From Thermoleophilia bacterium (GTDB lineage: Bacteria; Actinomycetota; Thermoleophilia; RBG-16-64-13), in the NCBI GenBank assembly GCA_050943595.1, contig JBMNPM010000001.1, positions 877-64,876 on the forward strand: a stretch of DNA of 64,000 bases, in the 5' to 3' direction. A program made the translations under genes and the position numbers. Shown one piece after another: positions 10,752-63,891 of the stretch. Each line of letters opens with the position of its first letter. Within the stretch, counting starts at the first letter, position 1. The notes under the pieces were generated by a model that worked only from the letters and a program-made list of their open reading frames with translations, had not been told where the DNA came from and did not search any database.

Positions 10752-10794
10752 CATACGCGCGCTTACGCCGTCCTGCTCGGTCGGCGAAGATGCG

Positions 10795-10843
10795 GAAACG
10801 GCCCAGGCCCTGGAGGCGATGCTTCCAGGGCCTGGGCCGTTTC
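10795..10843 (+). terminator. Long perfect hairpin (20-bp stem, 9-nt loop) after the molybdopterin subunit gene
   Basis: GAAACGGCCCAGGCCCTGGA (10795-10814) pairs with TCCAGGGCCTGGGCCGTTTC (10824-10843). No long U-tract. Confidence 0.6.
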
Positions 10844-11007
10844 TAGGACCGATCACCCGCCCCAGCATAGTAGATGCATCCTAGTAGATGTCATCCGACT
10901 GCAGTATTGATGGCGATCTGGTCGACTTGAACGGCATCCTGGGGAGTGCTAGCGTCCCCGGTGTAGCTCCAAGGAGAGGAGGCGGGTGTGTCTGGAGAGT
11001 GCATACG

Positions 11008-11823
11008 ATGACGCATACGGAGGATGGCAGTGCGGCTTCAGCCTCCTTTGATCTGACCGGTCGCGTGGTTGTCGTCACGGGCGGAGGTGGAGGGTTGGGC
11101 CGGGCGTTTTGCAGGGCAGTAGCCCGGCACGGTGCGGCCGTCGCCTGCGTGGATCGGGACCTGCGCGGAATCGAGGAGACCCTGGATGTGGTTGCCGGAT
11201 ATGGAGGCGAGTCCCTTGCCGTTGTTGCAGACATGACGGATTCAGTGCAGGTGGACGGTAGTGTGGAGCAGGTGCTGGCGGCCTTCGGCAGGATAGACAC
11301 ACTCATCGCCAATGCAGGGATAACATCGGACGCGGTTCCCCTCCACGAGACGAGTCCTACCGATTGGGAGCACATGATCAGGACCAATCTGACGAGCCAA
11401 TTTTTGGCCATGAGGGCCGTCCTGCCCACGATGATGAAGCAGTTGTCGGGCACCATCATCAACATCGCCTCCGTAGGTGCACTGGGGGGTAATCGGATTG
11501 CCCCTGCTGCATACGGTGCCTCCAAGGCCGCTGTCATTGCGCTTTGCAAGTACGCAGCCGTCCAGTACGGCGCATACGGGATACGGGCGAATTGCATACT
11601 GCCCGGCATCCACATTACCGATTTCGGTATGCCCGAAGGCGAGAGCGCGAAAGTGGAAAGGGTAACCTTTCTCGAGGAGTTCGCAGCCAGAAGTCTCCCG
11701 TTGGGCCGCGTCGCGTATCCACATGAACTCGAGGGTCTGGTGGTGCTGCTGGCCTCTGACGCCTCCAGCTATATCACCGGAGCCACTTTCATCCAGGATG
11801 GTGGCGGTACGGCTCAGGTTTAA
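11008..11823 (+). CDS. Short-chain dehydrogenase/reductase (classical SDR)
   Basis: TGGGGGLGRAF cofactor loop, NAG, catalytic Ser and YxxxK (IASVG...YGASKAAV). Start is uncertain: the ORF opens at 10888 and ATG 11008 was chosen. Confidence 0.8.
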   Translation: MTHTEDGSAASASFDLTGRVVVVTGGGGGLGRAFCRAVARHGAAVACVDRDLRGIEETLDVVAGYGGESLAVVADMTDSVQVDGSVEQVLAAFGRIDTLIANAGITSDAVPLHETSPTDWEHMIRTNLTSQFLAMRAVLPTMMKQLSGTIINIASVGALGGNRIAPAAYGASKAAVIALCKYAAVQYGAYGIRANCILPGIHITDFGMPEGESAKVERVTFLEEFAARSLPLGRVAYPHELEGLVVLLASDASSYITGATFIQDGGGTAQV

Positions 11824-11987
11824 GTAGCCTTCCAGGAGATCGCGAAATGCTGCCGGCGCAAACGGGCGTTGTTGACCTGGTGGCGAGGTGGAGAAGGCTG
11901 GACAACTGGGATGGATGCTGCCCAGACTTTTGTTTGGGTCGAGCTTTCTTGAATTCCCACGAGGACTATACTAGGATAGTCAAAACA

Positions 11988-12024
11988 TGGTATCATATGT
12001 CTATCCACTGGTATATCCATACCA
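11988..12024. promoter_or_regulatory. Candidate operator: TGGTAT half-site plus palindrome TGGTAT-ATCC-ATACCA in an AT-rich patch
   Basis: TGGTAT at 11988-11993. Perfect 6-bp inverted arms at 12009-12014 and 12019-12024. Lies 45-80 bp upstream of the start at 12069. Confidence 0.45.
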
Positions 12025-12068
12025 ACCAATCGGCAGGGTAGCGCAGACCCACAAGAGCGAGGCTGCCT

Positions 12069-13028
12069 GTGACCTGTGAGGATGTGAAGAAGATAGCTGT
12101 CTGCGGGGCCGGTACCATGGGGCCCGGATTGGCCCAGGTCTTTGCCACCAGAGGCTACGACGTCGCCCTATGCGATCTCAGGGCTGCGGCTTTGGAGAAG
12201 GGCTTGTCTGTGGTGAGGGCTAATATGACCACTTTTGTCGCCCATGGGATGCTCAGCCAAAGCGATATGGACGCGGCTCTGCAGCGTATCTGTTCGACCC
12301 GGTCGGTCATTGAGGCTGCTGCAGATGCCGATCTCATCATCGAGAGCATCACTGAGGACATGGATACTAAGAAGGCCTTGTTCGACGAACTTGACGAGGT
12401 GTGTCGTGAAGACGTCCTCTTTACCAGCAACACGTCGTACCTGAACATCTATGAGCTGGTTCCCTCTCGACGGCTGCCACGGACCATCATCGCGCATTGG
12501 TTCGCACCCCCTCACATCGTTCCCCTTGTCGAATTGGTCAAGGGTCCGCAGACGAGTCCGGAGACGGTAGATCTGATGCTCGGACTGCTCAAGAAGGTTG
12601 AGCATGTGCCGGTGGTGATGGAGAAGTTCGTACCGGGTTTTTGCGTCAACCGCCTTCTGCGCATCATCGGCCGGGAGCTCTTCTTTTTACTCGATAACGG
12701 CTATATGACTGCGGATCAGATCGACATGGCCGTCAAAGCCAGCATTATCCCCCGGGCCATGGTTCTTGGGTTTGTGCAGCGTTATGACTTCACGGGACTT
12801 GATCTCAGTTACGGCAACCTCCAGAACGAGGATTTTCTCGAGCCCCCTATCGACAACCAGCCTCGAAGCCTGCGCGAACGGGTGCAGCGGGGAGAGCTGG
12901 GGGTCAAGAGCGGCAAAGGCTTCTTTGATTACTCCGACCGTTCTCTCGAAGAGGTGCTTAGGGCTCGGGACGAAGCTCTTATTGAAGTATTCACCGACAC
13001 CAAGGACCTCATATCAAGGCGTATCTAG
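12069..13028 (+). CDS. 3-hydroxyacyl-CoA dehydrogenase (Hbd/FadB-type, NAD-binding)
   Basis: 319 aa. N-terminal Rossmann fold KIAVCGAGTMGPGLAQVFA. The length and two-domain layout match 3-hydroxybutyryl-CoA dehydrogenases. Confidence 0.82.
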   Translation: MTCEDVKKIAVCGAGTMGPGLAQVFATRGYDVALCDLRAAALEKGLSVVRANMTTFVAHGMLSQSDMDAALQRICSTRSVIEAAADADLIIESITEDMDTKKALFDELDEVCREDVLFTSNTSYLNIYELVPSRRLPRTIIAHWFAPPHIVPLVELVKGPQTSPETVDLMLGLLKKVEHVPVVMEKFVPGFCVNRLLRIIGRELFFLLDNGYMTADQIDMAVKASIIPRAMVLGFVQRYDFTGLDLSYGNLQNEDFLEPPIDNQPRSLRERVQRGELGVKSGKGFFDYSDRSLEEVLRARDEALIEVFTDTKDLISRRI

Positions 13029-13159
13029 TTGCGATGCGGTTCAAGCGACCAGGCGTGATAGTGCCTGGTGAAGTGTGAAAGGAGGGGTATGAAGCTGCCC
13101 GCAGACGAGATCATCGCAACGGACGCTCTTGATAGGACTTTTATCATTGAGGAGACACA

Positions 13160-13936
13160 ATGGTAGGCGACCTTTTTTCTCTCGAAGGTAAGAACGCCGT
13201 TATCATGGGCGGGGCAGGGGGCATAGGCACCGCAGTGGCAAAGGGCTTTCTCGCCTATGGGGCCGACGTTGCGCTGTGTGACATTGCGGCCCACAGTCTC
13301 CAAAAGGCCGTCGTTTATCTGGAGGAGGAGACTGGAAAAAAGGCCAGGCAATATGTAGTCACCGCTACAGAGGAAGAGGACGTTGAGCAGTTGGTGAGGG
13401 ACGTCGTTCGTGACATGGGCTCGGTCGACATCCTGGTGAATGCCCAGGGCTATAATGTCAAGTGTGAGGCCACCCATTTTCCCATGGACGAGTGGGAAAA
13501 GTTGTTCGCTGTGAATGTTGGTAGCGTGATGGTCTGCTGTAAGCATTTCGGGGCCGAGATGGTAAAGCAGGGTTATGGAAAGATCATCAACTTCTCCTCC
13601 ATCCGTGGTCAACGGGGCGCTCTGGGTGGTAATGCAGGATACTGTGCCACCAAAGGTGCGGTGGATATGCTCACCCGGCAGTTGGCCTGCGAGCTGGGAC
13701 CTAAGAACGTCCTTGTGAATGCGGTGGGGCCTATCATAACCAAGACGTCTATGACGACCGAGCTGATCGAAGCAGAGGCTTCGCGTTACGCTCGTTTTCT
13801 CCAGAACGTTCCGTTGGGGCGGCTGGGTACTACGGAGGACATCATTGGGCCCTGCGTCTTCCTGGCATCGGCGGCGTCAGATTTTGTCACTGGCACCATC
13901 CTTTATCCTGACGGTGGTGCAATGGCGTTCATCTAG
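13160..13936 (+). CDS. Short-chain dehydrogenase/reductase (classical SDR)
   Basis: IMGGAGGIGTAVA loop, catalytic S...YCATKGAV (YxxxK), C-terminal PDGG. RBS GAGGAG lies 6 nt upstream. Confidence 0.85.
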   Translation: MVGDLFSLEGKNAVIMGGAGGIGTAVAKGFLAYGADVALCDIAAHSLQKAVVYLEEETGKKARQYVVTATEEEDVEQLVRDVVRDMGSVDILVNAQGYNVKCEATHFPMDEWEKLFAVNVGSVMVCCKHFGAEMVKQGYGKIINFSSIRGQRGALGGNAGYCATKGAVDMLTRQLACELGPKNVLVNAVGPIITKTSMTTELIEAEASRYARFLQNVPLGRLGTTEDIIGPCVFLASAASDFVTGTILYPDGGAMAFI

Positions 13937-14007
13937 CCGCGTCGGCGATTGCAGAACTGCCTACATATCCACGTGTCCACACTTGACCAGATGAGGTAGC
14001 TGGAACC

Positions 14008-14838
14008 ATGGCAAGACCGCGGAATAAGGAAGCAGAACCGGATAAGCAGGGCGATACGGGCGGTGGCGCCTTTCTGGTGCGGGCCTTGGCTAAAGGTCTG
14101 ACCGTGCTCGGACTATTCGATGCCGAGAACCGTGAGTGGACACTTGATGAGATAGCCGAGGGGACCGGTCTTCCGCGTATGACCGCCTATCGGATGATAC
14201 GAACTATGGAGGCCGCCAGTTATCTGGTAAGGAATCCGGTCACCAGCCGGTATCACCTCGGCCCCGCTCTCCTGGCTGCTACCTATCTGTCGGAATCTTA
14301 TTCTGACTTGGTCAAGATCGCACGACCCTATTTGGAGGAATTGACGGCCAAGACCGGAGAGTCTGCCACTTTGGCGGTTGAGGTTGACGGGGTGGCCGTA
14401 AGTGTTTATACGGTTGATACTTCTCGACCTCTCAAGCGTGAAGTGGCCGTAGGACGGATCATAGGCGACACTGCCAATGCCAGTGGCAAGATACTGTCGG
14501 CCTTCAAGACCAAGGAAGAGCGGGCTGAACTTCTGATGAAGCCTCATATCGAACTCACTCCTTTTACCATCACGGATCCGGAGGAGTTGGATAAGGAGTT
14601 GGATAAGGTGCAGAGGGAGGGTATCGCCTTTGACAACGAGGAGCGCAACATCGGCACCTGCGCGGTAGCAGCGCCGGTCAGAGACCAGGTGGGTAAGGTC
14701 ATTGCCGCGGTATCGCTTGTCGTACCCACCGGTCGTTTTCAGGCAGCTGAGCGACAACGCTTCGCCGAGGCCGTTCAGGAGGCCGCCGCCTCGCTGTCCG
14801 CGTTTCTTGGCTACTCCGGTCGAGCCAGGGTGGAGTAA
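14008..14838 (+). CDS. IclR-family transcriptional regulator
   Basis: N-terminal winged HTH (VRALAKGLTVLGLF...WTLDEIAEGTGLPRMTAYRMIRTME) and a C-terminal effector domain (NEERNIGTCAVAAPV). Confidence 0.88.
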   Translation: MARPRNKEAEPDKQGDTGGGAFLVRALAKGLTVLGLFDAENREWTLDEIAEGTGLPRMTAYRMIRTMEAASYLVRNPVTSRYHLGPALLAATYLSESYSDLVKIARPYLEELTAKTGESATLAVEVDGVAVSVYTVDTSRPLKREVAVGRIIGDTANASGKILSAFKTKEERAELLMKPHIELTPFTITDPEELDKELDKVQREGIAFDNEERNIGTCAVAAPVRDQVGKVIAAVSLVVPTGRFQAAERQRFAEAVQEAAASLSAFLGYSGRARVE

Positions 14839-14886
14839 TGTGTAGGGGCGACGAACTCTACGATTCTTGAGGACGCCGGTCTGGTG

Positions 14887-15783
14887 CTATGAGCGCTCCT
14901 CAGTAGAGGCTGGCCCCACTTCGGATCGTGGTTCCTGCTCCCGCAACCCGGGATCCCATCCCAAATAGGCCGACAGAGACTGAGCGGCCTCCTTCACCGC
15001 CCGGGTGCAGTGCTCGCACTCCACGACCCCGAAGCGTCCCGTGGGTACTACTACGGCTATGGCTGCCATGACTCGGCCCAATTGGTCGCGCACCGGGGCA
15101 GCGACTGCGCAGAGATTCATGTGTAGGCCCTCAAGGTCGTAGGCTACGCCCTCCTCTACTATCCGATCCAGTTCGGCTGCGATCGCCTCTCGGTCTATGA
15201 CGGTGTGGGGGGTGAGTTGGGGTCGATCGAGGGACAATATGCGTTCCCGCTCTTCTGGGGACTTGAAGGCGGCAAATATTTTACCCTGCACTGATGCCAG
15301 GTTCCCGATAATACGTCCGGGTGCGGTCTGCCGCTGGAAGGGCCGGGTGGTGTTTATCATATCTATACAGACAGGGATACCATCCACCTCTTTGGCCAGA
15401 GTCACGGACTCTCCTGTTTCCTCCAGCAGATTGGTGAGAAAGGGCCTCGCTTGGGCCACGAGGTCGGAGTTGTCTTCGGAGAGATAGGCCATGGCCAAGG
15501 TGGCGGGGCCGAGCCGGTAGCGATTGGCAGTGGGGTCGCGGACCAGGAACGCCATCGATTCGAGTGTGCGCACCATGCGATAGACGGTCATGCGCAGGAG
15601 GCCCGTCCGCTCGGCTATCTCGTCGATGGTCCAGGCGCGATGATCGACGTCGAAAAGACCCAAGATCGACAGGCCACGCACCAGTGCTCGTACTATGAGC
15701 GGGTCGCCTTCCGCTGGAGTGGTTTTCTTCTGTCTCCCCGTGGCCGCTGCGCCGGTGGTGGTCGCCCTCTTACTGTCCGACAT
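14887..15783 (-). CDS. IclR-family transcriptional regulator (paralog, convergent with the previous gene)
   Basis: Same architecture (VRALVRGLSILGLF...WTIDEIAERTGLLRMTVYRMVRTLE; LEGLHMNLCAVAAPV). ATG 15783 chosen because GGAGGA lies 8 nt upstream. The ORF opens at 15849 without an RBS. Confidence 0.85.
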   Translation of the reverse strand: MSDSKRATTTGAAATGRQKKTTPAEGDPLIVRALVRGLSILGLFDVDHRAWTIDEIAERTGLLRMTVYRMVRTLESMAFLVRDPTANRYRLGPATLAMAYLSEDNSDLVAQARPFLTNLLEETGESVTLAKEVDGIPVCIDMINTTRPFQRQTAPGRIIGNLASVQGKIFAAFKSPEERERILSLDRPQLTPHTVIDREAIAAELDRIVEEGVAYDLEGLHMNLCAVAAPVRDQLGRVMAAIAVVVPTGRFGVVECEHCTRAVKEAAQSLSAYLGWDPGLREQEPRSEVGPASTEERS

Positions 15784-15866
15784 GCCTATTCCTCCAGGCG
15801 TATACTCGGCATGGAATACGCGTGGCTGCTTGTCCGCGAGGTCCTTCATATTCTATGGCACCGCGC

Positions 15867-15913
15867 ATGCTATCAGACGATATCATTGTAGTGTAGAGAC
15901 TATTGTAGAGACT
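15867..15913. promoter_or_regulatory. Candidate operator/promoter block in the IclR / Mo-enzyme divergent spacer: imperfect inverted repeat plus tandem TGTAGAGACT repeats
   Basis: ATGCTATC (15867-15874) and GATATCAT (15879-15886) match 7/8 as inverted arms. TGTAGAGACT occurs at 15892-15901 and 15904-13. Confidence 0.45.
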
Positions 15914-15990
15914 GCTGAGCGGGCCGCACACGTGGTTCACCCCGGTGCTCGCCGGCGGTCACCCATCTTCATCTAGGGAGCCGATGCCCT

Positions 15991-18510
15991 ATGCCGGAAC
16001 AGGTCTTCACGAATCTGACGAACAGCGGGCCCGTGACCGTGTACGTGACAGATGGCGAAATCAAGCGGGTTCGTCCTCTAGTCGCGGACGAGAGCGATTA
16101 CAGGCCGTGGACTATAGAGACGCCGGGCAGGAGCTTCTCACCGCCTAAGAAACCCACCCTCTCTCCCTATGTTCACGCCGAGCGGCGTCGTATCTATTCG
16201 GATGAGCGCATAAAGTACCCGATGAAACGGGTCGACTTCGACCCCCATGGTGAGCGCAACCCCCAGAATCGGGGTAAGTCTGGATACGAGCGTATCTCAT
16301 GGGATGAAGCTTTGGCGCTGGTGGCGGGTGAACTCAAGCGGGTGAAGGACACCTATGGTGGTTCGGCGATCAGCGGTATGACCTCCTCGCACCACAACTG
16401 GGGCATCGTAGGTTACAAGATGGGGCCTTTTACGCGCTTTATGAACTTGTTGGAGTTCACCCCCGTGCTCGACAATCCGGATAGCTGGGAGGGCTGGCAT
16501 TGGGGTGCCACCCACTGCTACGGTTTCTTTTGGCGATTGGGGATGCCGGAACCGTATGACATGCTGGAGGATGCCCTCCAGAACGCTGAGATGATCGTTT
16601 TTTGGTCGAATGATCCCGACTCCACCCGGGGTACGTACTCCGGCCAGGAGTCCTCTCTGTGGCGGCAGTGGTTGAAGGAGAAGGGCGTGAAAATGGTCTT
16701 CATCGACCCATTTCACAACTACACCAACGCTGTGATGGGCGGCAAGTGGATAGCTCCCCGCCCGGGGACCGATACGGCTATCGCCATGGCCATAGCCTTT
16801 GTGTGGATTACGGAAGGTACCTATAACCAGGACTACATCGAGCGTTGTACCATTGGTTTTGATGCTTTTAAGAAATACGTAATGGGTGAGAGCGACGGCG
16901 TACCGAAGACCCCGGAATGGGCCGGGGCTGAAGCGGATGTGGAAGCCCGCTTTATCCGTGCTCTGGCCCGCGAATGGGCCGCCAAACGCACTGTCCTATC
17001 AGGCGGGTCGCGTGGCGGCGAGGGTGGAGCCTGCCGGGAGGCGTACGGTACCGAATGGGCTCGGATGATGGTCCTCCTGCAGGCTATGCAGGGTCTCGGG
17101 GCTCCTGGGCGCAGCATCTGGGGCACCACGATGGGGGCACCGTCGGAGACTTCGATCTGGTTTCCTTGCTACGGCGAGCCTGAGGGCAGGATCTCTAGTT
17201 CCACCAAGGCCGCCACGTTCATTCCGACCAACCCGACGAAGCAGCGTCTCTGGCGACTGACCCTCCCCGACGCAATCTTGGATCCGCCGGTGAGTTGGTA
17301 TGGCGAGGGTTTCTGCGGCCAGAGCTTGGAGCAACAGTTCACCCATTTCGAATATCCCATGGAGGGATATTCGGAGATCAAACTGTTCTATCGCTACGGT
17401 GGATCGTTCATGGGCACCATGAGCGATGCCACCAAGTGGGTGCGCATGTATCAGAGCCCCAAGCTGGAGTTCGTCGTGAACCAAGACATCTGGTACAGCA
17501 GCGAAACGCGCATGGCAGACGTGATCCTGCCGGCGTGCACCAACTTCGAACGCGATGACATAGGTGAATGGGCGGGGGTTAATGGCTACACCGTCCATGC
17601 GAGCAACGGCTGTAACTATCGCTACGTGGTACGGGAGAAGAAGTGCATCGAGCCGCTGTGGGAATCGAAGTCCGACTACGAGATCTTCACGCTGCTTGCC
17701 GAACGGTTGGGATTCGAGGAGGAATTCACCGACGGCAAGACGGAGTTGGAATGGGTCAAGGCCTTCTTCGATGTCTCCGATCTCTCCCGGGAGGTCAGTT
17801 GGGAGGAGTTCGATCGCAAGGGTTATCACATCATCAACATTGAGGACGACTACAAACCTACCCCGGGTCTCCGCTGGTTCTATGAGGGGCGCTCCTGTGA
17901 TACCCCTGATCTGGGCAACCCGAAGCGTCTGGGCGAAAAATGCAAGGAGCTGGGTACCTTCAGCGGTAAGATCGAGTTCGAATCGGTGAGCCTCGGGCAG
18001 TACTTCCCGGATGACATGGAACGGCCGGTCGTGCCGCGTTATATCCCCAGTTGGGAAGGCCATGCCGGCGGGCCGGTGCATAAATACCCGCTACAACTCA
18101 TATCGCCTCATCCGCGGTTCTCCTTCCACTGTCACTACGATAAGCACACGGACTGGCTGGACGACATCCCCGTGCATCGTCTCATCAAGGACGGCTACAG
18201 TTGGTGGCCCGCCCGCATCCATCCTAAAGATGCGGCTCGGCGGGGCATTGCCAACAACGATCTAGTGCGGCTATACAACGATCGCGCCTCTGTGATATGC
18301 ATCGCCGTGGTTACCGGGAGGGTTCGCCCGGGAGTCGTCCATTCCTACTGTTCGTCGGCTAAATATGATCCACTGCTGCCCGGCAGGGCAGATTCGCCCG
18401 ACAAAGGTGGGTGTGTGGCTATGCTGACTTCGAGCCGCATGATGTCGGAGAATGCGCCGGGCATGACCCCGAATTCCTGTCTCATCGAGATCGAGAAATG
18501 GGAGGGCTGA
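15991..18510 (+). CDS. Pyrogallol-phloroglucinol transhydroxylase-like molybdopterin enzyme, large (alpha) subunit, paralog 1
   Basis: 839 aa, no N-terminal Cys cluster and no Tat leader. Motifs TSSHHNWG, NPDSWEGWHWG, ILPACTNFER and SPHPRFSFH are shared with paralogs 2/3 and with the Pelobacter AthL sequence as I recall it. Confidence 0.82.
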   Translation: MPEQVFTNLTNSGPVTVYVTDGEIKRVRPLVADESDYRPWTIETPGRSFSPPKKPTLSPYVHAERRRIYSDERIKYPMKRVDFDPHGERNPQNRGKSGYERISWDEALALVAGELKRVKDTYGGSAISGMTSSHHNWGIVGYKMGPFTRFMNLLEFTPVLDNPDSWEGWHWGATHCYGFFWRLGMPEPYDMLEDALQNAEMIVFWSNDPDSTRGTYSGQESSLWRQWLKEKGVKMVFIDPFHNYTNAVMGGKWIAPRPGTDTAIAMAIAFVWITEGTYNQDYIERCTIGFDAFKKYVMGESDGVPKTPEWAGAEADVEARFIRALAREWAAKRTVLSGGSRGGEGGACREAYGTEWARMMVLLQAMQGLGAPGRSIWGTTMGAPSETSIWFPCYGEPEGRISSSTKAATFIPTNPTKQRLWRLTLPDAILDPPVSWYGEGFCGQSLEQQFTHFEYPMEGYSEIKLFYRYGGSFMGTMSDATKWVRMYQSPKLEFVVNQDIWYSSETRMADVILPACTNFERDDIGEWAGVNGYTVHASNGCNYRYVVREKKCIEPLWESKSDYEIFTLLAERLGFEEEFTDGKTELEWVKAFFDVSDLSREVSWEEFDRKGYHIINIEDDYKPTPGLRWFYEGRSCDTPDLGNPKRLGEKCKELGTFSGKIEFESVSLGQYFPDDMERPVVPRYIPSWEGHAGGPVHKYPLQLISPHPRFSFHCHYDKHTDWLDDIPVHRLIKDGYSWWPARIHPKDAARRGIANNDLVRLYNDRASVICIAVVTGRVRPGVVHSYCSSAKYDPLLPGRADSPDKGGCVAMLTSSRMMSENAPGMTPNSCLIEIEKWEG

Positions 18511-18514
18511 CGGT

Positions 18515-19354
18515 ATGCCCCGGTATGGTTGGCTGATTGATGTCACCAAGTGCAGCGGGTGTTACAACTGCTTCCTCGCCTGCCGTGACGAATATTATGG
18601 GAACGACTACGGCTCGTATTCCGCACCGCAGCCGTTGAACGGCCAGCACTGGATGCAGGTCAAGGAGATCGAGCGGGGCACATATCCCAAGCCCAAACTG
18701 GACTACATCCCGGTGCCGTGCATGCATTGCCAGGATCCCCCCTGCATGGTGCCGGCGCAGGACGGTGCCGTGTACCGTAGGGAGGACGGCATTGTCCTGA
18801 TCGATCCCGTGAAGGCCAAGGGGCAGAAGGACATTGTAGGCGCATGTCCGTATCGGGTGATCTTCTGGAACGACGAACTGCAGATACCTCAGAAGTGCAC
18901 CATGTGCGCTCATCGGCTCGACGAGGGTGATAAAGAGCCACGCTGTGTGGAGGCCTGTCCCACCGGAGCTCTCGTGTTTGGTGATCTTGACGATCCGGAG
19001 AGTGACATTGTTGCCGCGCTGGCGGCCGTCCGGGCTGAGGACTACCATCCGGAGTACGAGACGTCGCCCACGGTCAAGTACGTGGGGATCCCCAAGCGTT
19101 TCATCGTGGGAGAGGTGGTTCGTGCAGATGTCCGGGGGGAATGCGTACAGGGAGCTGTGGTCACGGTGGAAGGTGAGGGGGGTGCGCAGGAGACTCGTAC
19201 GGACATCTTTGGTGATTTTGAATTCGAAGGCCTCGAAAAAAATTCTACCTATACGGTTCGTGTGGAGCTTGCCGGCTATGCGACTCACGTCATGGAAGTC
19301 GTGACGCGACGCGATGTAGATCTAGGCGAGATCGTTCTTGAGCCGCAGGGTTGA
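18515..19354 (+). CDS. Transhydroxylase-like small (beta) subunit, 3x[4Fe-4S] ferredoxin domain plus C-terminal beta-barrel domain, paralog 1
   Basis: 279 aa, 4 nt after alpha1. Twelve cluster Cys (CSGCYNCFLAC, PCMHCQDPPC, ACP, CTMCAHR...RCVEACP). C-terminal GDFEFEGL...YTVRVELAGY domain. Confidence 0.85.
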   Translation: MPRYGWLIDVTKCSGCYNCFLACRDEYYGNDYGSYSAPQPLNGQHWMQVKEIERGTYPKPKLDYIPVPCMHCQDPPCMVPAQDGAVYRREDGIVLIDPVKAKGQKDIVGACPYRVIFWNDELQIPQKCTMCAHRLDEGDKEPRCVEACPTGALVFGDLDDPESDIVAALAAVRAEDYHPEYETSPTVKYVGIPKRFIVGEVVRADVRGECVQGAVVTVEGEGGAQETRTDIFGDFEFEGLEKNSTYTVRVELAGYATHVMEVVTRRDVDLGEIVLEPQG

Positions 19355-19376
19355 TCAGCGCCGGTCGAGCTGAGAG

Positions 19377-20582
19377 GTGACGATGCGCGAAGCGGTGATC
19401 ATCAGTGCCGTCAGGACTGCCGGCGGGAGGATGGGGGGAGGGTTGCGGGCCATTCAGCCTGAGGACCTCTCCCAGGTGGTCATCAAGGCGGTTCTTGAGC
19501 GTGCCCAGGTGGAGCCGGATGCTGTAAGCGAGGTCATCTTCGGCCAGGCGAAGCAGAGCACCGATGCCGCGAATCTGGCCCGCGTGGCGGCTTTGAAGGC
19601 CGGTCTCCCCGTCGAAGTGCCAGCTTATACCGTCATGCGCCAGTGTGGCTCGGGGCTTCAGGCCGTCAACAACGCTGTTCAAGCGATCGCACTCGGCCTT
19701 GCTGAGATAGTCGTTGCCGGCGGTGTGGAGAGTATGAGCAATGCGCCCTACTACCTTCGGGGTGCCCGCTACGGCTACGGCGTTGGTAACGCCGTCCTGG
19801 TCGACTCGAACACAGAGAGCCAACCGCGTTCGCAGCCTATCGAGGTCTACGGCAATCTCTCTATGGGGCTCACGGCCGAGAATCTGGCCACGAAGTACCG
19901 CATTAGCCGGGAAGAGCAGGACGCCTTCGCGCTGCAGAGCCACACTAGGGCTTTGGCGGCGATGGCGGCCGGTACGTTCTGTGACGAGATCGTGCCCGTC
20001 TCTGTGCCGCAGCGGAAGGGCGATCCGCTCATCTTCGACACGGACGAGCATCCTCGTCGCACGAGTATGGAGGCTTTGTCCAGGTTGACTCCCGCTTTTA
20101 GGGAGAATGGTACGGTTACGGCCGGCAACTCGTCCGGCCGGAACGATGGCGCTGCCTGCTGTCTGGTCATGTCGGCTGCGGAAGCGGGCAGGAGGGGTCT
20201 GCATCCTATGGCGATCGTGCGGAGCCAGGCTGTGGTCGGAGTGTCCCCCGACATCATGGGGATCGGTCCGGCGCCGGCCAGTCGCAAAGCGCTCGCTTTT
20301 GCGGGTCTAACTTTTGACGATCTGGGTCTGATAGAAGTGAACGAGGCCTTTGCGGCTCAGAGTCTCGCGGTTATCAAGGAACTGGACCTACAGGATCGTA
20401 TGTCCGACATAAATCCCAATGGCGGCGCCATCGCGCTCGGTCATCCACTGGGGTGCTCGGGGGCCAGGATACTCTGCAGTCTTCTGCATGAGATGGGGCG
20501 GCGCAAGGTCCGCTACGGCCTGGCCACACTCTGCATCGCCGGAGGGCAGGGCATAGCGACGGTGGTGGAGGCCGCATGGTAG
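19377..20582 (+). CDS. Acetyl-CoA C-acetyltransferase (thiolase II family)
   Basis: RQCGSGLQAV (nucleophile Cys), NEAFAAQ, GHPLGCSGARI, CIAGGQG. Starts 22 nt after beta1. Confidence 0.92.
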   Translation: MTMREAVIISAVRTAGGRMGGGLRAIQPEDLSQVVIKAVLERAQVEPDAVSEVIFGQAKQSTDAANLARVAALKAGLPVEVPAYTVMRQCGSGLQAVNNAVQAIALGLAEIVVAGGVESMSNAPYYLRGARYGYGVGNAVLVDSNTESQPRSQPIEVYGNLSMGLTAENLATKYRISREEQDAFALQSHTRALAAMAAGTFCDEIVPVSVPQRKGDPLIFDTDEHPRRTSMEALSRLTPAFRENGTVTAGNSSGRNDGAACCLVMSAAEAGRRGLHPMAIVRSQAVVGVSPDIMGIGPAPASRKALAFAGLTFDDLGLIEVNEAFAAQSLAVIKELDLQDRMSDINPNGGAIALGHPLGCSGARILCSLLHEMGRRKVRYGLATLCIAGGQGIATVVEAAW

Positions 20583-20744
20583 GGGTGCGCAGGCTTTGCA
20601 GGCACAAGGTCTGAGGGCCGGTGATCCCCCGGGTGGATGGCCGTCCCGCGCCGGTCGCTACCCTCGTCTGTTGTGCCGCGGAGGGGCCGGTAGTATCCTG
20701 CGCACTGCGGTTTTCACGGTAGACTGAATGTCTGGAGTCAGAGC

Positions 20745-22034
20745 ATGCGCATTGATGTTCCCTGGGGTACAGGTATAAGGACCGTTGAGATCGATGACGA
20801 GCGGGTGGCCGGCATCCTCGGTGCGCAGGTGGAGTCGGCCTCAAATCCGGAGGCGATTCTGCGCGAAGCGCTGCGCAGACCGGGTGCAGGCTTCGATGAT
20901 TTCCTTCAGAAGGCTCCGTCGCCTCTTCTGGTGGTGGTCAACGACGGCACCCGGCCGACGCCGTCGGCGGACGTTCTGCAGGTCATGCAGGATGCTCTGG
21001 AAGACTGGCTCGACCGGCCCGGCCGGGAGCTCTGGTTCGCCGTCGCCACCGGCACGCATCGGGTGGCTCTGCCGGAGGAGATAACGCGCATCTTCGGGGC
21101 GGAGATGGCCCGTAAGCACAGGGAGCGCATTGTGTCTCATGATGCCAAGGCGGAGGAGGAGATGGTGTGGCTGGGACGGACCAGCCGTGGCATCGATATC
21201 AAGGTGAATCGCCTGCTTGCGGAGGCGGGAAGCGTTATCCTCATCAACTCGGTGGAACCCCACTACTTCGCGGGCTATACGGGCGGCCGCAAATCGCTCT
21301 TTCCCGGGTTGGCTGCGTATGAGACCGTCTGGGCCAACCACAAGCTCTCCATGGAAGCGGGGTCGGAGAGTCTGATGCTGGCGGGAAACCCGGTCCACGA
21401 AGATATGGAAGAGGCCTTGGCGGTCGGAATAGCCGGGAAGGAGGTGTTTTCCGTCCAGTTGGTGCTCGACAAGGATCATCGTATCGGGTTCGCAGCAGCA
21501 GGGCCTCTTGATGATACGTTCCGCGAGGCGGTTCGTGTGGCCGACCGGCAATTTGTGTTGGACATAGACCAGCGCTGTGACGTGGTGGTGGCGGTGGCTC
21601 CTCACCCCATGGACTGCAATCTCTATCAGACCAACAAAGCCATCCAAAGTGGCGCTGCTGCCGTTAAGGATGGGGGTGTGCTCATCGTAGTGTCGGAATG
21701 TCCTTTCGGGCTGGGAGAAAACCAGACACTCTTCGACATGTTGGCGTCGGTCGATTCGCCCAGGGCGGCGATTGAGCGGGCCAATCGTGAGGAATACAAG
21801 TTGGGGGTGCAGCAGGCCACCCGTATCGCCTCCATCTTGGAACGGGCCGAGATCTGGATCGTCAGTACTCTCGATGACGATGATGTGAACGCCATGTTCA
21901 TGACCCCGTTCTCAGATATACAGGTGGCTCTGGACCGTGCCCTTCTCCACCAGGGTCCGGAAGCCCGGGTTCTCTTTCTCCAAGAAGCGAGTATCACCGT
22001 GCCCCGCGTCGAAGCTCACAACCGGCCGGGATAG
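20745..22034 (+). CDS. LarA-like (lactate racemase family, nickel-pincer cofactor dependent) protein
   Basis: 429 aa. LLVVVNDGTRPTP, ATGTHR and HYFAGYTGGRKSLFPG...NHK resemble the LarA N-terminal domain and its Lys/His cofactor site, as I recall them. Confidence 0.7.
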   Translation: MRIDVPWGTGIRTVEIDDERVAGILGAQVESASNPEAILREALRRPGAGFDDFLQKAPSPLLVVVNDGTRPTPSADVLQVMQDALEDWLDRPGRELWFAVATGTHRVALPEEITRIFGAEMARKHRERIVSHDAKAEEEMVWLGRTSRGIDIKVNRLLAEAGSVILINSVEPHYFAGYTGGRKSLFPGLAAYETVWANHKLSMEAGSESLMLAGNPVHEDMEEALAVGIAGKEVFSVQLVLDKDHRIGFAAAGPLDDTFREAVRVADRQFVLDIDQRCDVVVAVAPHPMDCNLYQTNKAIQSGAAAVKDGGVLIVVSECPFGLGENQTLFDMLASVDSPRAAIERANREEYKLGVQQATRIASILERAEIWIVSTLDDDDVNAMFMTPFSDIQVALDRALLHQGPEARVLFLQEASITVPRVEAHNRPG

Positions 22035-22082
22035 GCTCTGCCGGCTGCAGGTGAGCGCGGAAGAGTGGTGGAAGAGTGGTTC

Positions 22083-56049: not shown

Positions 56050-56865
56050 CTACTTTTGGAGGAAGATCACACCAAGGTTGATGCTTTCCTTTAAGTCGAC
56101 TTTCTGTACCAGGTCCTTGTAGCCGCCGGCCGTCACGGTCACCTCATATGCGCCCGGATCCAGCTTGTCGAACCTGAAGTCACCGTAGTTGGTCGTCTTC
56201 GCTTCGGCTATCTTCGTGCCGTTCTGAGACAGAGTGACGGCTGCACCCTCCGCGCATTCATCGGTGTCCTTGTAGGCGACAGTGCCGGCGATGAACGACT
56301 TGGTCCACTTGTAGAGGTTCTTGTACAGCACACGGGGCTTGGTGCCTAGCTCAGGTAGATAGGCCTCCAGGCCCTCCTCGGCCACGTTGCCGTCATCGGT
56401 GAGGACCAGCTTGATGGCGCCGGTGGGGCACACCTGCGAGCAGCGGGTCTCCGTCCAACCTTCGTCGATGAGGTGGGCGCAGCCGGTGCACTTCTGTGCG
56501 ACCTGTCTCTCCTCGTTCCAATAGATGACACCGTAGGGACAGCTATCCAAGATCTCCTTCTTGCCCTTGGCCTTTTCGGGGTCGATGATGACCAGGCCGT
56601 CATCCCGCTTGTAGACGGCGCCATCGGCGGTGAGACAGGGGGCTTCGTCACAGTGCATGCAGGGCGTGGGAAGATAGGCCACGTCGATAAGCGGGTACTG
56701 GCCGCGCTCCTTGCGCTCGATGTTCATCCAGCGGGCGCCTTCCCACGGCTGAGCAACAGAGTATGGGAGGAAGTCGTTGCCCGTGAACTCGTCCTTGTCG
56801 GACAAGAAACAGTTATTGCAGTCGTTGCACAGGGCAACGTCGATCACCAGGTTCCATTTCTTCAT
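56050..56865 (-). CDS. Transhydroxylase-like small (beta) FeS subunit, paralog 2
   Basis: MKKWNLVIDVALCNDCNNCFLSD... Close to paralog 3 and to the Pelobacter BthL sequence as I recall it. ATG 56865-56863 overlaps the alpha2 stop (ATGA). The ORF-track start 56880 lies inside alpha2. Confidence 0.88.
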   Translation of the reverse strand: MKKWNLVIDVALCNDCNNCFLSDKDEFTGNDFLPYSVAQPWEGARWMNIERKERGQYPLIDVAYLPTPCMHCDEAPCLTADGAVYKRDDGLVIIDPEKAKGKKEILDSCPYGVIYWNEERQVAQKCTGCAHLIDEGWTETRCSQVCPTGAIKLVLTDDGNVAEEGLEAYLPELGTKPRVLYKNLYKWTKSFIAGTVAYKDTDECAEGAAVTLSQNGTKIAEAKTTNYGDFRFDKLDPGAYEVTVTAGGYKDLVQKVDLKESINLGVIFLQK

Positions 56866-59492
56866 TTGGCACCATCCCATTTCTCAACCTGTAGTAAGCA
56901 CGAGCCGTTGGACATCCCCTGAGAGGTGGGAGTTATGTACCGGATGTTGGTTAGGATATTGATGCATCCGCCTTGGTCGGGTGATTCACCCGGTGTGCCG
57001 ATCGGATCGTACTCTGCACAAGACTCGTAGCTGTGCACCGTGCCTTGGGGGAGGCGCTCCGTCAACTGGGCGGCTAAGATAACAGATCCCCGGTCGTTGT
57101 AGGCACGGATGAGGTCATTGTTCTTGATGCCGCGTTCTTCCGCGTCTTTCGTGTTGAGGCGCATGACCCAGTAGTAGTGACCGCCCACGAGAACGCGGTG
57201 ATCCTTGACCTGGTTCATCCAGCTTTCCTTGCCGTCACCCATGGTGTGGAAGCTGAAGCGCGGATGTGGGGAGACCATGGCCAGCGGGTACTTCTCGAAG
57301 AGCTCTGTGGTGTGGTGACCCTCCCAGCTGGGGATATAGGTCGGGCCGAGCGGCGGGCGCTCGGGGTCCTCTTTGCCTTCGGACGCATAGAAGTTCTTCA
57401 GGCTATTGGACACGAACTCAATCTTACCTGACTGGGTTTGCAGGCCCTTGAGGCCGATCTGCTCGTTGGGGGCCGGACCCCAGTCCGGTGTGTCGCGCAC
57501 CCGGTCTTCAGCAAACCAGCGCAGGGCAGTAGTGTTGTAGAGATCATCACTCGTTTTGTTCTTCGGAGGGGGAATCACGAAGTAGCCCTTCTCGAAGAAC
57601 TCATCCCACGTGATGAGCTCGGAGATGTCCGAGGCATGGAACACCTGCTTCACCCAATCCAGGTCGGTTTTACCTCCCTGCGTGAAGAGCTCGCCGATGC
57701 CCAGACGCTCGCAGATAGCAGCAAAGATATCGTAGTCGGACTTGCTCTCACCCAGCGGCTCGATGCACTTCTTCTGGAGCGAGACGATGCGGTTGTTGCA
57801 CTGGTCGAACGAGTCGGCGCCGTAGCCGCCCATGCTGGCGAACTCGCTGATGTCCCAGCGCTCGAAGTTCGTGCAGGCGGGTAGGATGATGTCGGCCAGT
57901 TGGGCTTCACCCTCGAACCAGATGACCTGGGAGACGGCAAACTCAAGTTTGGGCTGGCGATAAGCTTTGACGTACCGGTTGGTCTGAGTCATGGTGCCGA
58001 TGAACGACGCGCCGTAGCGCCACAGCATGCGGATGAAGCCATAACCGGGGGCCGGATACTCATACTTCTGGAACTGGCTCTGGATGGTGGCGGCGCAGAA
58101 GCCTTTGCCTCTGTGCTCGAAGCGCTCATGCATGAGCGCTTCCGGAAGGCGGAGACGCGGTACCATCTGGCCCTCAGTGGAGTCATGAGGGTTGCTGGTG
58201 GGGCCGGCGTTGGCCGTGGCACCTTCTTTACCCTGCCACATCTGGGCTCCCCAGCGGTAGAATGAACCGGATTTTGCCGGGTCACCGCTGATCGCGCCTT
58301 CACCGTAGCCGGGGAAGGTGATGTTGTAGTCGGCGGGGGACCCTTGGCAGGTTCCCCACAGGTTGATGCCCGGCTTACCAAGACCCTGCATGGTGATGAG
58401 GGCTATCATGGTGCGGGCCCACTCATTGCCGGTTGCGGAACGGCCTGCTCCACCCCATCCACCGAGAGAACCGGCCGCCAGCATAGTTTTCTTGGAGCCC
58501 CACTCGCGGGCGAACGCACGGATATCCCGGGCCGGGATGCGGCACTCATTCTCGGCCCACTCAGGTGTCTTGGGGACTCCATCGCTTTCGCCGAGCACGT
58601 AGGCTTTCCACTCACCAAAGCCGTGGGTACGGGTTTCTACATATTCCTTGTCGTACAGGTCTTCGGTGAGCCAGGTGTAGGCTATGCCCAAACCAAAGGC
58701 CACGTCTGTGCCCATACGGGGAGAGAACCACTTGTCGGCTATGAGACCGGCGGTGTGATTGTAGTACGGGTCGACAAAGACCATCTTGACACCCAGCTCT
58801 TTGAGCCAGAGACGACGCACTGTGCTCTCGAAGGCCGAGTAAATACCGCCGCCTGTGGTGTCGGGGTCGGCGGACCAGAAGACGATCATGTCGGTATGCT
58901 TGAGGGCGTCCTCGAGCAGACCGTACTGTTCGGGGATTCCGTTGCGGTGGCTAAAGCCCCACATGTGCATCCCGCCCCAGTGCCAACCTTCCCAGCTGTC
59001 AGGGTTGTGGGTGCCCCATACCATGCCAACCAGATTGGACCAGCGGACGTAGGCGCTGTGCCGGTAGCCAACGATCCCCCAAAGATGATGGGAGCCGCAG
59101 GTGGTGAGCATGGTACCCGGCCCGTAGGTTCGCTTGATGCGTTTGATCTCACTGCAACAGATGTCCAGAGCCTCGTCCCAGCTTATCGGCTCGTATCCGG
59201 ACGTACCGCGATTCTGGGGGTTGCGCTCCCCATTAGGATCGAAGTCCACTCGTTTGAGCGGAGTGAGGACCCTCTTCGGCGAATAGATCATCGACTTGTG
59301 ACCGGCCGTATAGGGTGCCACGGTCGTCCGTCGCGGGGGAGTGAACTTCTTCCCGCGCGCCTCAATACACCAAGACTCTGCGTCGTTGTTGTCTAGATCC
59401 ATGGGGTAGATTCGGATGATTTTCCCGTCTTTTATGTCGACAAAGACGGGCCCCCCGGTGGTGCTGTTGGTTAGTGTTTCGACTTTGCCCAT
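56862..59492 (-). CDS. Pyrogallol-phloroglucinol transhydroxylase-like molybdopterin enzyme, large (alpha) subunit, paralog 2
   Basis: 876 aa; MGKVETLTNSTTGGPVFVDIKDGKIIRIYPMD, GSHHLWG, NPDSWEGWHWGGMHMWGF, SPHPRFSFHT, IRAYNDRGSVILAAQ. No FeS Cys cluster and no Tat leader. RBS GAAGGAGG upstream. Confidence 0.9.
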   Translation of the reverse strand: MGKVETLTNSTTGGPVFVDIKDGKIIRIYPMDLDNNDAESWCIEARGKKFTPPRRTTVAPYTAGHKSMIYSPKRVLTPLKRVDFDPNGERNPQNRGTSGYEPISWDEALDICCSEIKRIKRTYGPGTMLTTCGSHHLWGIVGYRHSAYVRWSNLVGMVWGTHNPDSWEGWHWGGMHMWGFSHRNGIPEQYGLLEDALKHTDMIVFWSADPDTTGGGIYSAFESTVRRLWLKELGVKMVFVDPYYNHTAGLIADKWFSPRMGTDVAFGLGIAYTWLTEDLYDKEYVETRTHGFGEWKAYVLGESDGVPKTPEWAENECRIPARDIRAFAREWGSKKTMLAAGSLGGWGGAGRSATGNEWARTMIALITMQGLGKPGINLWGTCQGSPADYNITFPGYGEGAISGDPAKSGSFYRWGAQMWQGKEGATANAGPTSNPHDSTEGQMVPRLRLPEALMHERFEHRGKGFCAATIQSQFQKYEYPAPGYGFIRMLWRYGASFIGTMTQTNRYVKAYRQPKLEFAVSQVIWFEGEAQLADIILPACTNFERWDISEFASMGGYGADSFDQCNNRIVSLQKKCIEPLGESKSDYDIFAAICERLGIGELFTQGGKTDLDWVKQVFHASDISELITWDEFFEKGYFVIPPPKNKTSDDLYNTTALRWFAEDRVRDTPDWGPAPNEQIGLKGLQTQSGKIEFVSNSLKNFYASEGKEDPERPPLGPTYIPSWEGHHTTELFEKYPLAMVSPHPRFSFHTMGDGKESWMNQVKDHRVLVGGHYYWVMRLNTKDAEERGIKNNDLIRAYNDRGSVILAAQLTERLPQGTVHSYESCAEYDPIGTPGESPDQGGCINILTNIRYITPTSQGMSNGSCLLQVEKWDGAK

Positions 59493-63061: not shown

Positions 63062-63891
63062 TGAAAAAGTGGAACCTGGTCATTGACGTAGCCCGTTGCC
63101 ACGATTGCAACAACTGCTTCATGTCCGACAAGGACGAGTTTGTCGGTAACGATTTCCCACCCTATTCGGCGGCTCAGCCCTGGAACGGCCATCGTTGGAT
63201 GAACATCCTGCGTACCGAGCGTGGCCAGTATCCCATCGTACAGGTGGGTTATCTGCCTATGCCCTGTATGCATTGCGACGAAGCCCCCTGCCTTACCGAT
63301 GACGGCGCCGTCTACAAGCGGGATGACGGCCTGGTCATCATCGATCCCGAGAAGGCCAAGGGCAAGAAGGAGATCCTGGATAGCTGTCCCTACGGTGTCA
63401 TCTACTGGAACGAGGAAGCGGCTCTTCCCCAGAAGTGCACCGGCTGCGCCCACCTTATCGACCAAGGGTGGACGGAGACCCGCTGCTCGCAGGTGTGTCC
63501 CACCCAGGCCATCCAGTTGGTCTTGGCCGAGGATGCGGACATGGCCAAGCAGGTGGCTGAAGGTGAGCTGCGCGCCTACAAAGACGAGCTGGGCACCAAG
63601 CCCCGCGTCTACTACAAGAATCTCTACAAGTTCGACAAGGTGTTCGTCGCCGCCGGCGTCGTTTTCGCCGACACTGATGAGTGTGCCGACGGGGTTCAGG
63701 TGACCGTGAGCGAGAAGGGGACCGTAGTAGGTACCGCTCAGACCAACAACTACGGCGAGTTCGTCGTCGACGGACTCGAGCAGACGACCTATGACGTCAC
63801 CATCCAGGCGGCCGGTTATAAACCCCACTCCGCCGCCGTCACCTTGGACAAGAGTCTCAACATGGGAGTGGTCATGCTGGAGAAAGCCTAG
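63061..63891 (+). CDS. Transhydroxylase-like small (beta) FeS subunit, paralog 3
   Basis: Start ATG 63061 (TAATG overlap with the alpha3 stop) gives MKKWNLVIDVARCHDCNNCFMSD..., colinear with beta2. The ORF-track start 62956 lies inside alpha3. Confidence 0.88.
   Translation: MKKWNLVIDVARCHDCNNCFMSDKDEFVGNDFPPYSAAQPWNGHRWMNILRTERGQYPIVQVGYLPMPCMHCDEAPCLTDDGAVYKRDDGLVIIDPEKAKGKKEILDSCPYGVIYWNEEAALPQKCTGCAHLIDQGWTETRCSQVCPTQAIQLVLAEDADMAKQVAEGELRAYKDELGTKPRVYYKNLYKFDKVFVAAGVVFADTDECADGVQVTVSEKGTVVGTAQTNNYGEFVVDGLEQTTYDVTIQAAGYKPHSAAVTLDKSLNMGVVMLEKA

Follow-up and report, generated by a model that had tools for sequence, protein, structure and literature searches.

A putative trihydroxybenzene-catabolic island around an uncharacterised clade of transhydroxylase-type molybdenum enzymes in an uncultured actinobacterium

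The anaerobic breakdown of trihydroxybenzenes derived from tannins and flavonoids governs the survival of phenolic carbon in peat, sediments and guts; to our knowledge, characterisation has so far reached only a single transhydroxylase (AthL/BthL) and a single phloroglucinol gene cluster. A 64-kb stretch of contig JBMNPM010000001.1 (hereafter the window, meaning the whole of the DNA analysed), whose host is an uncultured actinobacterium, holds nine genes centred on a transhydroxylase-like molybdenum (Mo) enzyme, alpha1/beta1. Around it lie two short-chain dehydrogenases (SDR1 and SDR2), a dehydrogenase of the 3-hydroxyacyl-CoA dehydrogenase fold, two IclR regulators, a thiolase and a LarA-like protein, and the question is whether these genes form a catabolic pathway and, if so, for which substrate and by which steps. 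The original prediction, made from the DNA letters, had proposed a trihydroxybenzene/phloroglucinol island, and all nine open reading frames (ORFs) and domain families that it listed were recovered at their coordinates with Pfam and curated profile models (Table 1). The island is a variant of the known pathway, distinguished by an uncharacterised transhydroxylase clade, an NADH-type reductase, an apparently lost lyase gene (TAL) and a distribution of genes over several loci. With moderate confidence, we take the locus to be one portion of a pathway for pyrogallol/phloroglucinol catabolism whose genes are spread over several loci in this lineage.

The comparison set comprised ~280 related loci, cited below by L numbers. 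A scan of one genome per species confirmed at least 586 relatives of alpha1, the best 80 of which (66–83% identity) were kept; they come from metagenome-assembled genomes (MAGs) labelled Actinomycetota, Desulfobacterota, SAR324, Rhodospirillaceae, Betaproteobacteria, Bacillota and others. The nearest loci belong to uncultured MAGs labelled Actinomycetes, Actinomycetota, Thermoleophilia or Gaiellales (alpha1 75–86% and NusG 89–94% identity), and a 2.7-kb Logan contig (L086) shares 91% DNA identity with the window. An exact-sequence look-up of alpha1 found no identical protein on record.

The reference for the downstream steps is the Clostridium scatologenes cluster, which encodes the phloroglucinol reductase PGR, the dihydrophloroglucinol cyclohydrolase DPGC, the (S)-3-hydroxy-5-oxohexanoate dehydrogenase TfD, the triacetate acetoacetate-lyase TAL and a thiolase (PMC10470551). 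With the cyclase family PF04199 as proxy for DPGC and the BKACE family PF05853 as proxy for TAL, at least one SDR2-like, TfD-like (3HCDH fold), BKACE or cyclase gene lies within 10 kb in 40 of the 80 alpha1-clade loci, and in 25 of the 44 that are at least 15 kb long; a thiolase was seen in 21 loci of the same survey. Complete operons occur in Acidobacteriaceae/Acidobacteriota MAGs (L230, L233, L243) in the order alpha-beta-cyclase-cyclase-thiolase-TfD-BKACE-SDR, and in Thermoleophilia MAGs (L084/L204, L205, L209-211, L216, L219, L222) in the order IclR-TfD-BKACE-SDR-thiolase-cyclase-cyclase. The products of the latter are 61–74% (TfD), 56–64% (SDR2), 68–72% (thiolase) and 58–66% (IclR1) identical to those of the window. 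In the closest long relatives (L081/L082) the order is FeS-NrfD-Mo-TfD-BKACE-SDR2-IclR-AOR-MBL-EamA-IclR(-)-alpha-beta-thiolase (AOR, aldehyde:ferredoxin oxidoreductase), which is the backbone of the window.

The clustering is not a product of chance: many genomes have this gene set around their alpha1 orthologue. Gene context proves the link of the island to the phloroglucinol pathway. The predicted association of a transhydroxylase-like enzyme and IclR regulators with this pathway is thereby supported, orthologues of alpha1/beta1, SDR2, the dehydrogenase, the thiolase and IclR1 standing in complete operons with cyclase and BKACE genes. The notion that the SDR, the dehydrogenase and the thiolase are generic sugar or fatty-acid enzymes gathered by chance was rejected, since dozens of loci show the set again, accompanied by cyclase and BKACE genes. 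Like the C. scatologenes cluster, the window keeps an SDR, a TfD-like dehydrogenase with the signature residues and a thiolase; unlike it, the window has neither DPGC nor TAL, its SDR carries an NADH-type Asp instead of TR(S/N), and its genes are fused to a transhydroxylase unit and regulated by IclR proteins, while the cyclase genes of its relatives come in tandem pairs.

Alpha1 aligns over its full length with the AthL structure (4v4c_A, 862 bits, query residues 6–839 on chain residues 7–869), and beta1 with BthL (4v4c_B, 218 bits, residues 1–273 on 1–272). These matches, together with the domains and residues, bear out the transhydroxylase-like pair of the original prediction. Alpha1/beta1 shares with AthL/BthL of Pelobacter acidigallici the two-subunit layout, the cluster-less first domain (PF21423 of the AhtL type at 65 bits, with the FS0 cluster domain lacking), the Ser ligand, the Fe-S plus beta-barrel organisation of the beta subunit and the lack of any Tat (twin-arginine translocation) signal, the N-terminus of alpha1 (MPEQVFTNLTNSGPV) having no twin-arginine motif. 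His144, Asp174, Ser175 and Tyr404 (AthL numbering) are all present in alpha1. Ser175 is the Mo ligand and the other three are catalytic residues, as Messerschmidt et al. reportedly described in 2004.

The 101 large subunits compared were grouped by average-linkage clustering on identity-based distances. Alpha1 and 72 others form clade 3, the mean identity being 74% among its members, 51% with the AthL clade and 38% with clade 1; the four residues named above are invariant across these 73 members, save for one gap at Tyr404. AthL falls in clade 4 with one other protein and with alpha2 and alpha3, the large subunits of two further transhydroxylase pairs in the window, and the remaining groups are the distant clade 1 and two small ones. 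The retained active-site residues and the separate clade make alpha1 a predicted competent member of the AthL family, and not an AthL orthologue; orthology to AthL did not hold up, as alpha1 belongs to a sister clade and alpha2 (62%) is nearer to AthL. No characterised member of the alpha1 clade was found in the literature searched.

Several observations weigh against a straightforward pyrogallol/phloroglucinol assignment. Alpha1 is only 48.6% identical to AthL, as compared with 62.2% for alpha2 and 56.9% for alpha3, and its clade is separate from that of all three. At AthL positions 153 (R->K), 154 (H->M) and 354 (W->E) it carries fixed changes: Lys, Met and Glu are invariable in clade 3, and the AthL clade shows Arg at the first position, His or Phe at the second and Trp at the third. 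Among the matches of SDR2, PDB 5g4k, which we take to be a phloroglucinol reductase, comes at rank 9 with 127 bits, gluconate 5-dehydrogenases scoring higher at 154 bits, and SDR2 has ALCDI where the TR(S/N) motif for NADPH would be expected. Finally, TAL and the cyclases are absent, with no tblastn match to either the cyclase or the BKACE family in the 64-kb window.

The first two points, the separate clade and the fixed changes, mean that the substrate of alpha1 may differ from that of AthL. In one alternative, which we consider possible but doubtful, alpha1/beta1 would form phloroglucinol from hydroxyhydroquinone, a tetrahydroxybenzene, resorcinol (hydroxylated at C5 in the reaction) or a carboxylated phenol such as gallate, and alpha2 and alpha3 would carry out the pyrogallol reaction within a multi-step isomerisation network; such a network is said to have been described biochemically for Pelobacter massiliensis by Brune and colleagues in 1992. 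The distinctness and tight conservation of clade 3 speak for this, as do its fixed Lys153, Met154 and Glu354, positions 153 and 354 reportedly lining the pocket in the 2004 structure; against it, all four catalytic or ligand residues are retained in alpha1. The presence of two AthL-clade members (alpha2 at 62%, alpha3 at 57%) in the same window is also in its favour, yet complete operons in which a clade 3 protein is the sole Mo enzyme beside the phloroglucinol genes fit the pyrogallol assignment equally well. A further point in favour is that, in Desulfobacterota operons, three genes just upstream of alpha (~347, 171 and 433 aa) fit, by size alone, a tripartite ATP-independent periplasmic (TRAP) transporter; TRAP systems usually import carboxylates. 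Extended to the whole clade, and held just as tentatively, the proposal would make clade 3 a distinct hydroxyl-transferase or hydroxylase that produces phloroglucinol from a non-pyrogallol substrate, working here with two AthL-clade paralogues in a hydroxyl-shuffling network; the lineage may in addition run the downstream pathway in a TAL-independent, NADH-linked form.

The pathways of resorcinol hydroxylase (RhLS) and 3,5-dihydroxybenzoate hydroxylase (DbhLS) proceed via hydroxyhydroquinone dehydrogenase, not phloroglucinol reductase. No genes of the hydroxyhydroquinone dehydrogenase route were recognised near alpha1-clade genes in the surveyed loci, and a literature search for hydroxyhydroquinone or tetrahydroxybenzene genes yielded nothing useful. 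Both hydroxylases, which are from nitrate reducers, belong to the same Mo-enzyme family as alpha1, the RhL/PgtL family of Ser-coordinated enzymes with a bis-molybdopterin guanine dinucleotide (bis-MGD) cofactor (PMC10100899).

Found in MAGs of Actinomycetota, Desulfobacterota, Acidobacteriota, SAR324, Rhodospirillaceae and Bacillota, the alpha1 clade is the transhydroxylase branch linked in this survey to phloroglucinol genes in at least six bacterial groups, and a clear target for enzymology. Metagenome annotations labelled "pgthAB" merge these transhydroxylase clades, and splitting them by clade would sharpen predictions of polyphenol turnover. Clade 1 is represented by a pair (L002 6232-8928, L014 6350-8977 and 18 others) that is 36–38% identical to the other clades. 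Tyr404, Tyr560 and Trp354 are lacking in it, and positions 145 and 153 are Gly and Pro. Many actinobacterial relatives have this pair in divergent orientation upstream of alpha1, whereas it is absent from the window. The alpha2 and alpha3 pairs are divergent around a spacer of ~1 kb and are situated beyond the ribosomal gene block.

SDR2 has the catalytic motifs of a classical SDR, Ser and YxxxK (FSSIRG...GYCATKGA). Among its 120 closest database relatives listed, none bears the name PGR, and only generic SDR or gluconate dehydrogenase labels appear. Sequence alone thus gives no tie to a known reductase, and the assignment of SDR2 as a phloroglucinol-reductase-type SDR is drawn from gene context, because in the complete Thermoleophilia operons (L084, L204-L222) no SDR was found other than its orthologues (56–64% identity). 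A 73% identical orthologue in L081/L082 is encoded with TfD and TAL; in the window only TfD is adjacent. The TR(S/N) motif of characterised phloroglucinol reductases binds the 2'-phosphate of NADPH (PMC10470551). The NADH-type Asp that replaces it is found in the actinobacterial versions of SDR2 and in two others, and the Desulfobacterota, SAR324 and Bacillota versions read SSRN, ASRS or ASRN. We infer that SDR2 would prefer NADH, and the reductase of the phloroglucinol pathway exists in NADH-type and NADPH-type forms.

The neighbouring dehydrogenase was called a 3-hydroxyacyl-CoA dehydrogenase by the original prediction. The fold stands; activity on CoA esters is not predicted, as the residues that contact CoA are lacking. 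In an alignment with the C. butyricum 3-hydroxybutyryl-CoA dehydrogenase 4kug, Ser117, His138 and Asn188 are kept, while Met stands in place of Lys56 and Ala in place of Asn221, and no NHPMGP motif remains. By this residue pattern the C. scatologenes study told the free-acid enzyme TfD from CoA-ester dehydrogenases (PMC10470551), and the window protein is accordingly predicted to have the signature of TfD. Its orthologues in relatives adjoin BKACE genes. The TfD signature leaves the thiolytic route through triacetyl-CoA, as originally proposed, not favoured.

What, then, became of the missing steps? The original caveat that no ring-opening hydrolase, CoA-transferase or decarboxylase lies in the window holds: in addition to the negative tblastn searches, Pfam scans of the larger window ORFs contained no CoA-transferase or decarboxylase. 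The accompanying verdict, that the gene set is incomplete or biochemically different, is answered on its first half, with TAL apparently deleted and the cyclase pair remote in relatives. The gap between TfD and SDR2 measures 131 nt, ~790 nt fewer than in L081, and relatives carry the BKACE gene in this position. The gap holds a 25-codon stub whose peptide (MKLPADEIIATDAL...) shares 8/17 positions with the BKACE N-terminus MKLPAGKVIITASL and 7/17 with MKLPRGKVIITASL; since the match is short, the stub is suggestive of a TAL deletion scar, not proof of one. The layout itself indicates that TAL was lost by deletion between TfD and SDR2 in the lineage of the window, and the TAL-less arrangement is the same in L086.

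Losses of this kind could mark a decaying remnant that no longer supports growth on trihydroxybenzenes and serves at most in detoxification, which we hold to be very improbable. Relative to its closest relatives, the window has indeed lost TAL, the AOR, MBL-fold and EamA genes and a B3_4 gene before LarA; nevertheless, the remaining genes are all intact ORFs. Between the window and L086, both of which bear the deletion, the ratio of nonsynonymous to synonymous substitution rates (dN/dS) is 0.13 for TfD, 0.06 for SDR2 and 0.05 for IclR1, at a dS of ~0.34–0.40. These low values imply that the three genes have been under purifying selection since TAL was lost, and ratios of 0.05–0.13 argue against decay. 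So does the split layout, which is normal, as relatives too keep their cyclases remote.

Selection on the flanking genes after the loss of TAL can also be read as support for the CoA-dependent route of the Pelobacter acidigallici type proposed originally, in which 3-hydroxy-5-oxohexanoate is activated to a CoA ester, this ester is dehydrogenated and triacetyl-CoA is cleaved by the thiolase, so that TAL is not needed. In translational terms the thiolase lies near beta1, at a distance of 22 nt, and an ADP-forming acyl-CoA synthetase (ACS) is encoded at 1073-3295; that synthetase, however, is 30–46% identical to pathway-linked ACS proteins and adjoins indolepyruvate oxidoreductase genes. Several other lineages replace TfD-TAL with a CoA-type module of ADP-forming ACS, enoyl-CoA hydratase (ECH) and DUF35/SCPx-thiolase, but this DUF35/SCPx/ECH module was not found in the 64-kb window. 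With a dehydrogenase that lacks Lys56, Asn221 and NHPMGP, the CoA contacts, and that is orthologous to genes directly beside TAL, we regard this route as unlikely.

The CoA-type module is part of a Desulfobacterota-type operon seen mostly in MAGs so labelled (L019 10001-19000, L016, L020, L023, L025, L026, L032, L251, L260, L271, L276). It begins with a divergent IclR gene, sometimes three transporter-sized genes, alpha-beta, a 111-aa cupin and an NADPH-type SDR, and ends with an optional cyclase-cyclase, a split ADP-forming ACS, an enoyl-CoA hydratase, a DUF35 OB-fold protein and an SCPx-type thiolase. It looks like a CoA-dependent alternative to TfD+TAL, and the steps after ring opening come in at least two gene versions, TfD+TAL or the ACS/hydratase/DUF35-SCPx module.

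As to ring opening, the cyclase pair of close relatives is not near the island; it resides within the same MAGs, be it on the contig of the island or on a different one. In CAVQME010000001.1 the island spans 159-182 kb, with the cyclases at 522-535 kb; in CAVPLM010000003.1 the respective positions are 650-672 kb and 337-349 kb. Remote cyclases in island-bearing relatives show that a split pathway is normal in this lineage, and in the genome that the window comes from, as in its relatives, the genes for ring opening probably lie elsewhere. In nearly all of 80 loci (L204-L283, e.g. L204 6001-7640) the cyclase-family (DPGC-like) genes are two tandem paralogues that share ~40% identity, which suggests a heteromeric enzyme or two activities.

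On the pyrogallol/phloroglucinol reading that we favour, the route would run as follows. Alpha1/beta1, as a cytoplasmic Mo-bis-MGD/Fe-S enzyme, would convert pyrogallol or a close hydroxybenzene to phloroglucinol, which SDR2, going by context and motif, would reduce to dihydrophloroglucinol, NADH being the probable cofactor. Ring opening to (S)-3-hydroxy-5-oxohexanoate would be the work of two cyclase-family hydrolases whose genes, as the relatives suggest, lie outside the window, and the TfD-like dehydrogenase, judged by its signature residues, would oxidise this free acid to triacetate. In relatives, the BKACE-family lyase TAL would then split triacetate with acetyl-CoA; since TAL appears deleted here, this cleavage must fall to a gene elsewhere or to another route. 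The thiolase, which exceeds the TIGR01930 cutoff (463.7 vs 240.55), has Cys90, His354 and Cys386, and has its 68–72% identical orthologues inside complete operons, would turn acetoacetyl-CoA into two acetyl-CoA. SDR1 and the LarA-like protein would be bystanders, not core members.

The two regulators appear to divide the island between them. IclR2 would control the alpha1-beta1-thiolase unit from a divergent promoter, and IclR1 would belong to the TfD-SDR2 unit. The divergent arrangement of IclR2 and alpha1 is kept in actinobacterial relatives, alignment with relatives supports the IclR2 start at 15783, and the block at 15852-15899 may be inferred to be a candidate operator. IclR1 sits 3' of SDR2 in L081/L082 and 5' of TfD in the complete Thermoleophilia operons. 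In close relatives (L081 11927-16001; L001, L004, L082), AOR-family and MBL-fold genes lie between the IclR genes, joined in L081 and L082 by an EamA transporter gene; all three are absent from the window, which is why its two IclR genes are adjacent, with their convergent stops 48 nt apart. The gap between alpha1 and beta1 is 4 nt. A promoter and terminator consensus scan of 10600-22600 gave counts not above those of shuffled controls, so the transcription units are drawn from gaps and synteny only.

Table 1. Coordinates of the island and associated features in the window
Feature	Position	Strand	Domains or remarks
Hairpin, 23-nt arms, 96% complementary	10795..10843	+	3' of upstream Mo-enzyme gene
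SDR1, NAD-type short-chain dehydrogenase	11008..11823	+	adh_short
TfD-like dehydrogenase, predicted (S)-3-hydroxy-5-oxohexanoate dehydrogenase	12069..13028	+	3HCDH_N + 3HCDH
25-codon stub, probable TAL deletion scar	13089..13166	+	AGGAGG ribosome-binding site; BKACE-gene position in relatives
SDR2, phloroglucinol-reductase-type SDR	13160..13936	+	adh_short + adh_short_C2; NADH-type motif ALCDI
IclR1	14008..14838	+	HTH_IclR + IclR_C; accompanies TfD-(TAL)-SDR2 module
IclR2	14887..15783	-	HTH_IclR + IclR_C; divergent from alpha1
Conserved block with GATATC core, candidate operator	15852..15899	.	IclR2/alpha1 divergent promoter region, shared with relatives
Alpha1, Mo-bis-MGD catalytic subunit, AthL family, clade 3	15991..18510	+	AhtL-like_1st + Molybdopterin + Molydop_binding
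Beta1, BthL-type Fe-S subunit, C-terminal beta-barrel	18515..19354	+	Fer4_11 + CarboxypepD_reg
Thiolase, predicted acetoacetyl-CoA thiolase	19377..20582	+	TIGR01930; starts 22 nt after beta1
LarA-like NPN-type racemase (NPN, nickel-pincer nucleotide)	20745..22034	+	Lar_N + LarA_C
Beta2/alpha2, second transhydroxylase pair	56050..59492	-	Alpha2 62% to AthL, closest AthL relative in the window
Alpha3/beta3, third transhydroxylase pair	60473..63891	+	AthL clade, alpha3 57% to AthL

Two genes of the island thus fall outside the proposed route. SDR1, with an alternative in-frame GTG start at 10987 behind GGAGAGGAGG, had been counted as an island member, which is not upheld, as no orthologue occurs in any of the 80 alpha1 loci. 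Orthologues (64%) were found only at L167 and L168, where they adjoin GlcD/GlcF-like FAD/FeS genes and another Mo enzyme, and SDR1 is best described as a predicted lineage-specific addition, not a conserved member of the pathway.

The LarA-like gene, like the LarA family of NPN-dependent 2-hydroxyacid racemases, has both domains and all the NPN-binding and catalytic motifs: GTRPTP, GTHR, EPHYFAGYTGGRK, NH and NLYQTNK align with Mar2 and presumably provide the NPN-attaching Lys, the Ni-binding His, the two catalytic His, and the carboxylate-binding Arg and Tyr-Gln-x-x-Lys. Unlike the characterised LarA subfamilies, it scores below every curated equivalog cutoff, the best being the LarAH6 malate racemase (313 vs 500 bits), with the LarA model at 262 vs 460. 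The window ORFs that were scanned with Pfam included no larB, larC or larE. Orthologues at 56–82% identity are confined to this actinobacterial lineage, where they lie directly upstream of the tRNA/nusG/rplA region; the next homologues are at ~40%. In L091, L098 and L112 the gene occupies this place with no alpha, beta or thiolase within 8 kb upstream. In nearly all relatives it is preceded by, and paired with, a divergent gene of ~245 aa with a B3_4 domain; at 20583-20744 of the window no tblastn match to that gene was obtained, and there is a 162-nt spacer only. In six loci a major intrinsic protein (MIP) channel follows, a combination of LarA-like protein and channel that recalls larA-larD of Lactobacillus plantarum. 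The orthologues at 56–62% (L107, L111, L115) adjoin fused FAD/Fe-S/CCG 2-hydroxyacid dehydrogenases, and so do many homologues of ~40% identity from other phyla. The protein was rejected as the missing ring-opening or isomerising step, being lineage-restricted, kept by the nusG region without the transhydroxylase, and found beside 2-hydroxyacid dehydrogenases. It is probably a lactate-type racemase and a mere neighbour of the island; that it has no place in the known pathway, as first noted, agrees with the neighbourhoods of its orthologues.

The hairpin at 10795-10843 closes the upstream Mo-enzyme operon and is the left boundary of the island; on the right follow four tRNA genes (22145-22765) and then nusG, rplA, rplJ, rpoBC and the ribosomal operons. 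The upstream operon (6740-10751) encodes an Fe-S protein (6740-7513), an NrfD-type membrane protein (7531-8499) and a Mo enzyme (8538-10751) with an N-terminal Fe4S4 domain, whose best solved relative is acetylene hydratase (292 bits). Its layout resembles that of the gut catechol dehydroxylases, in which the Mo enzyme has Fe-S and membrane-anchor partners (PMC7028382); unlike them, the upstream Mo enzyme has no Tat signal. The same FeS-NrfD-Mo operon precedes TfD in L081/L082, and related Mo genes (33–34% identity in most such loci), followed by a small ferredoxin-like gene, adjoin alpha in Bacillota and other loci. Further upstream, 1073-5756 holds the ADP-forming ACS followed by the alpha and beta genes of an indolepyruvate:ferredoxin oxidoreductase, a typical module for the fermentation of aromatic amino acids to arylacetates with a gain of ATP. 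The synthetase is no orthologue of the pathway-linked ones; its identity to pathway-linked ACS proteins and its neighbours, both given above, led to the rejection of this ACS as a member of the island. Downstream, the gene for RNA polymerase beta' (30279-34622) encodes 1447 aa, with a C-terminal extension (residues 1345-1399) that matches the model of the RNA polymerase alpha C-terminal domain (PF03118) at 46 bits vs a cutoff of 23.8.

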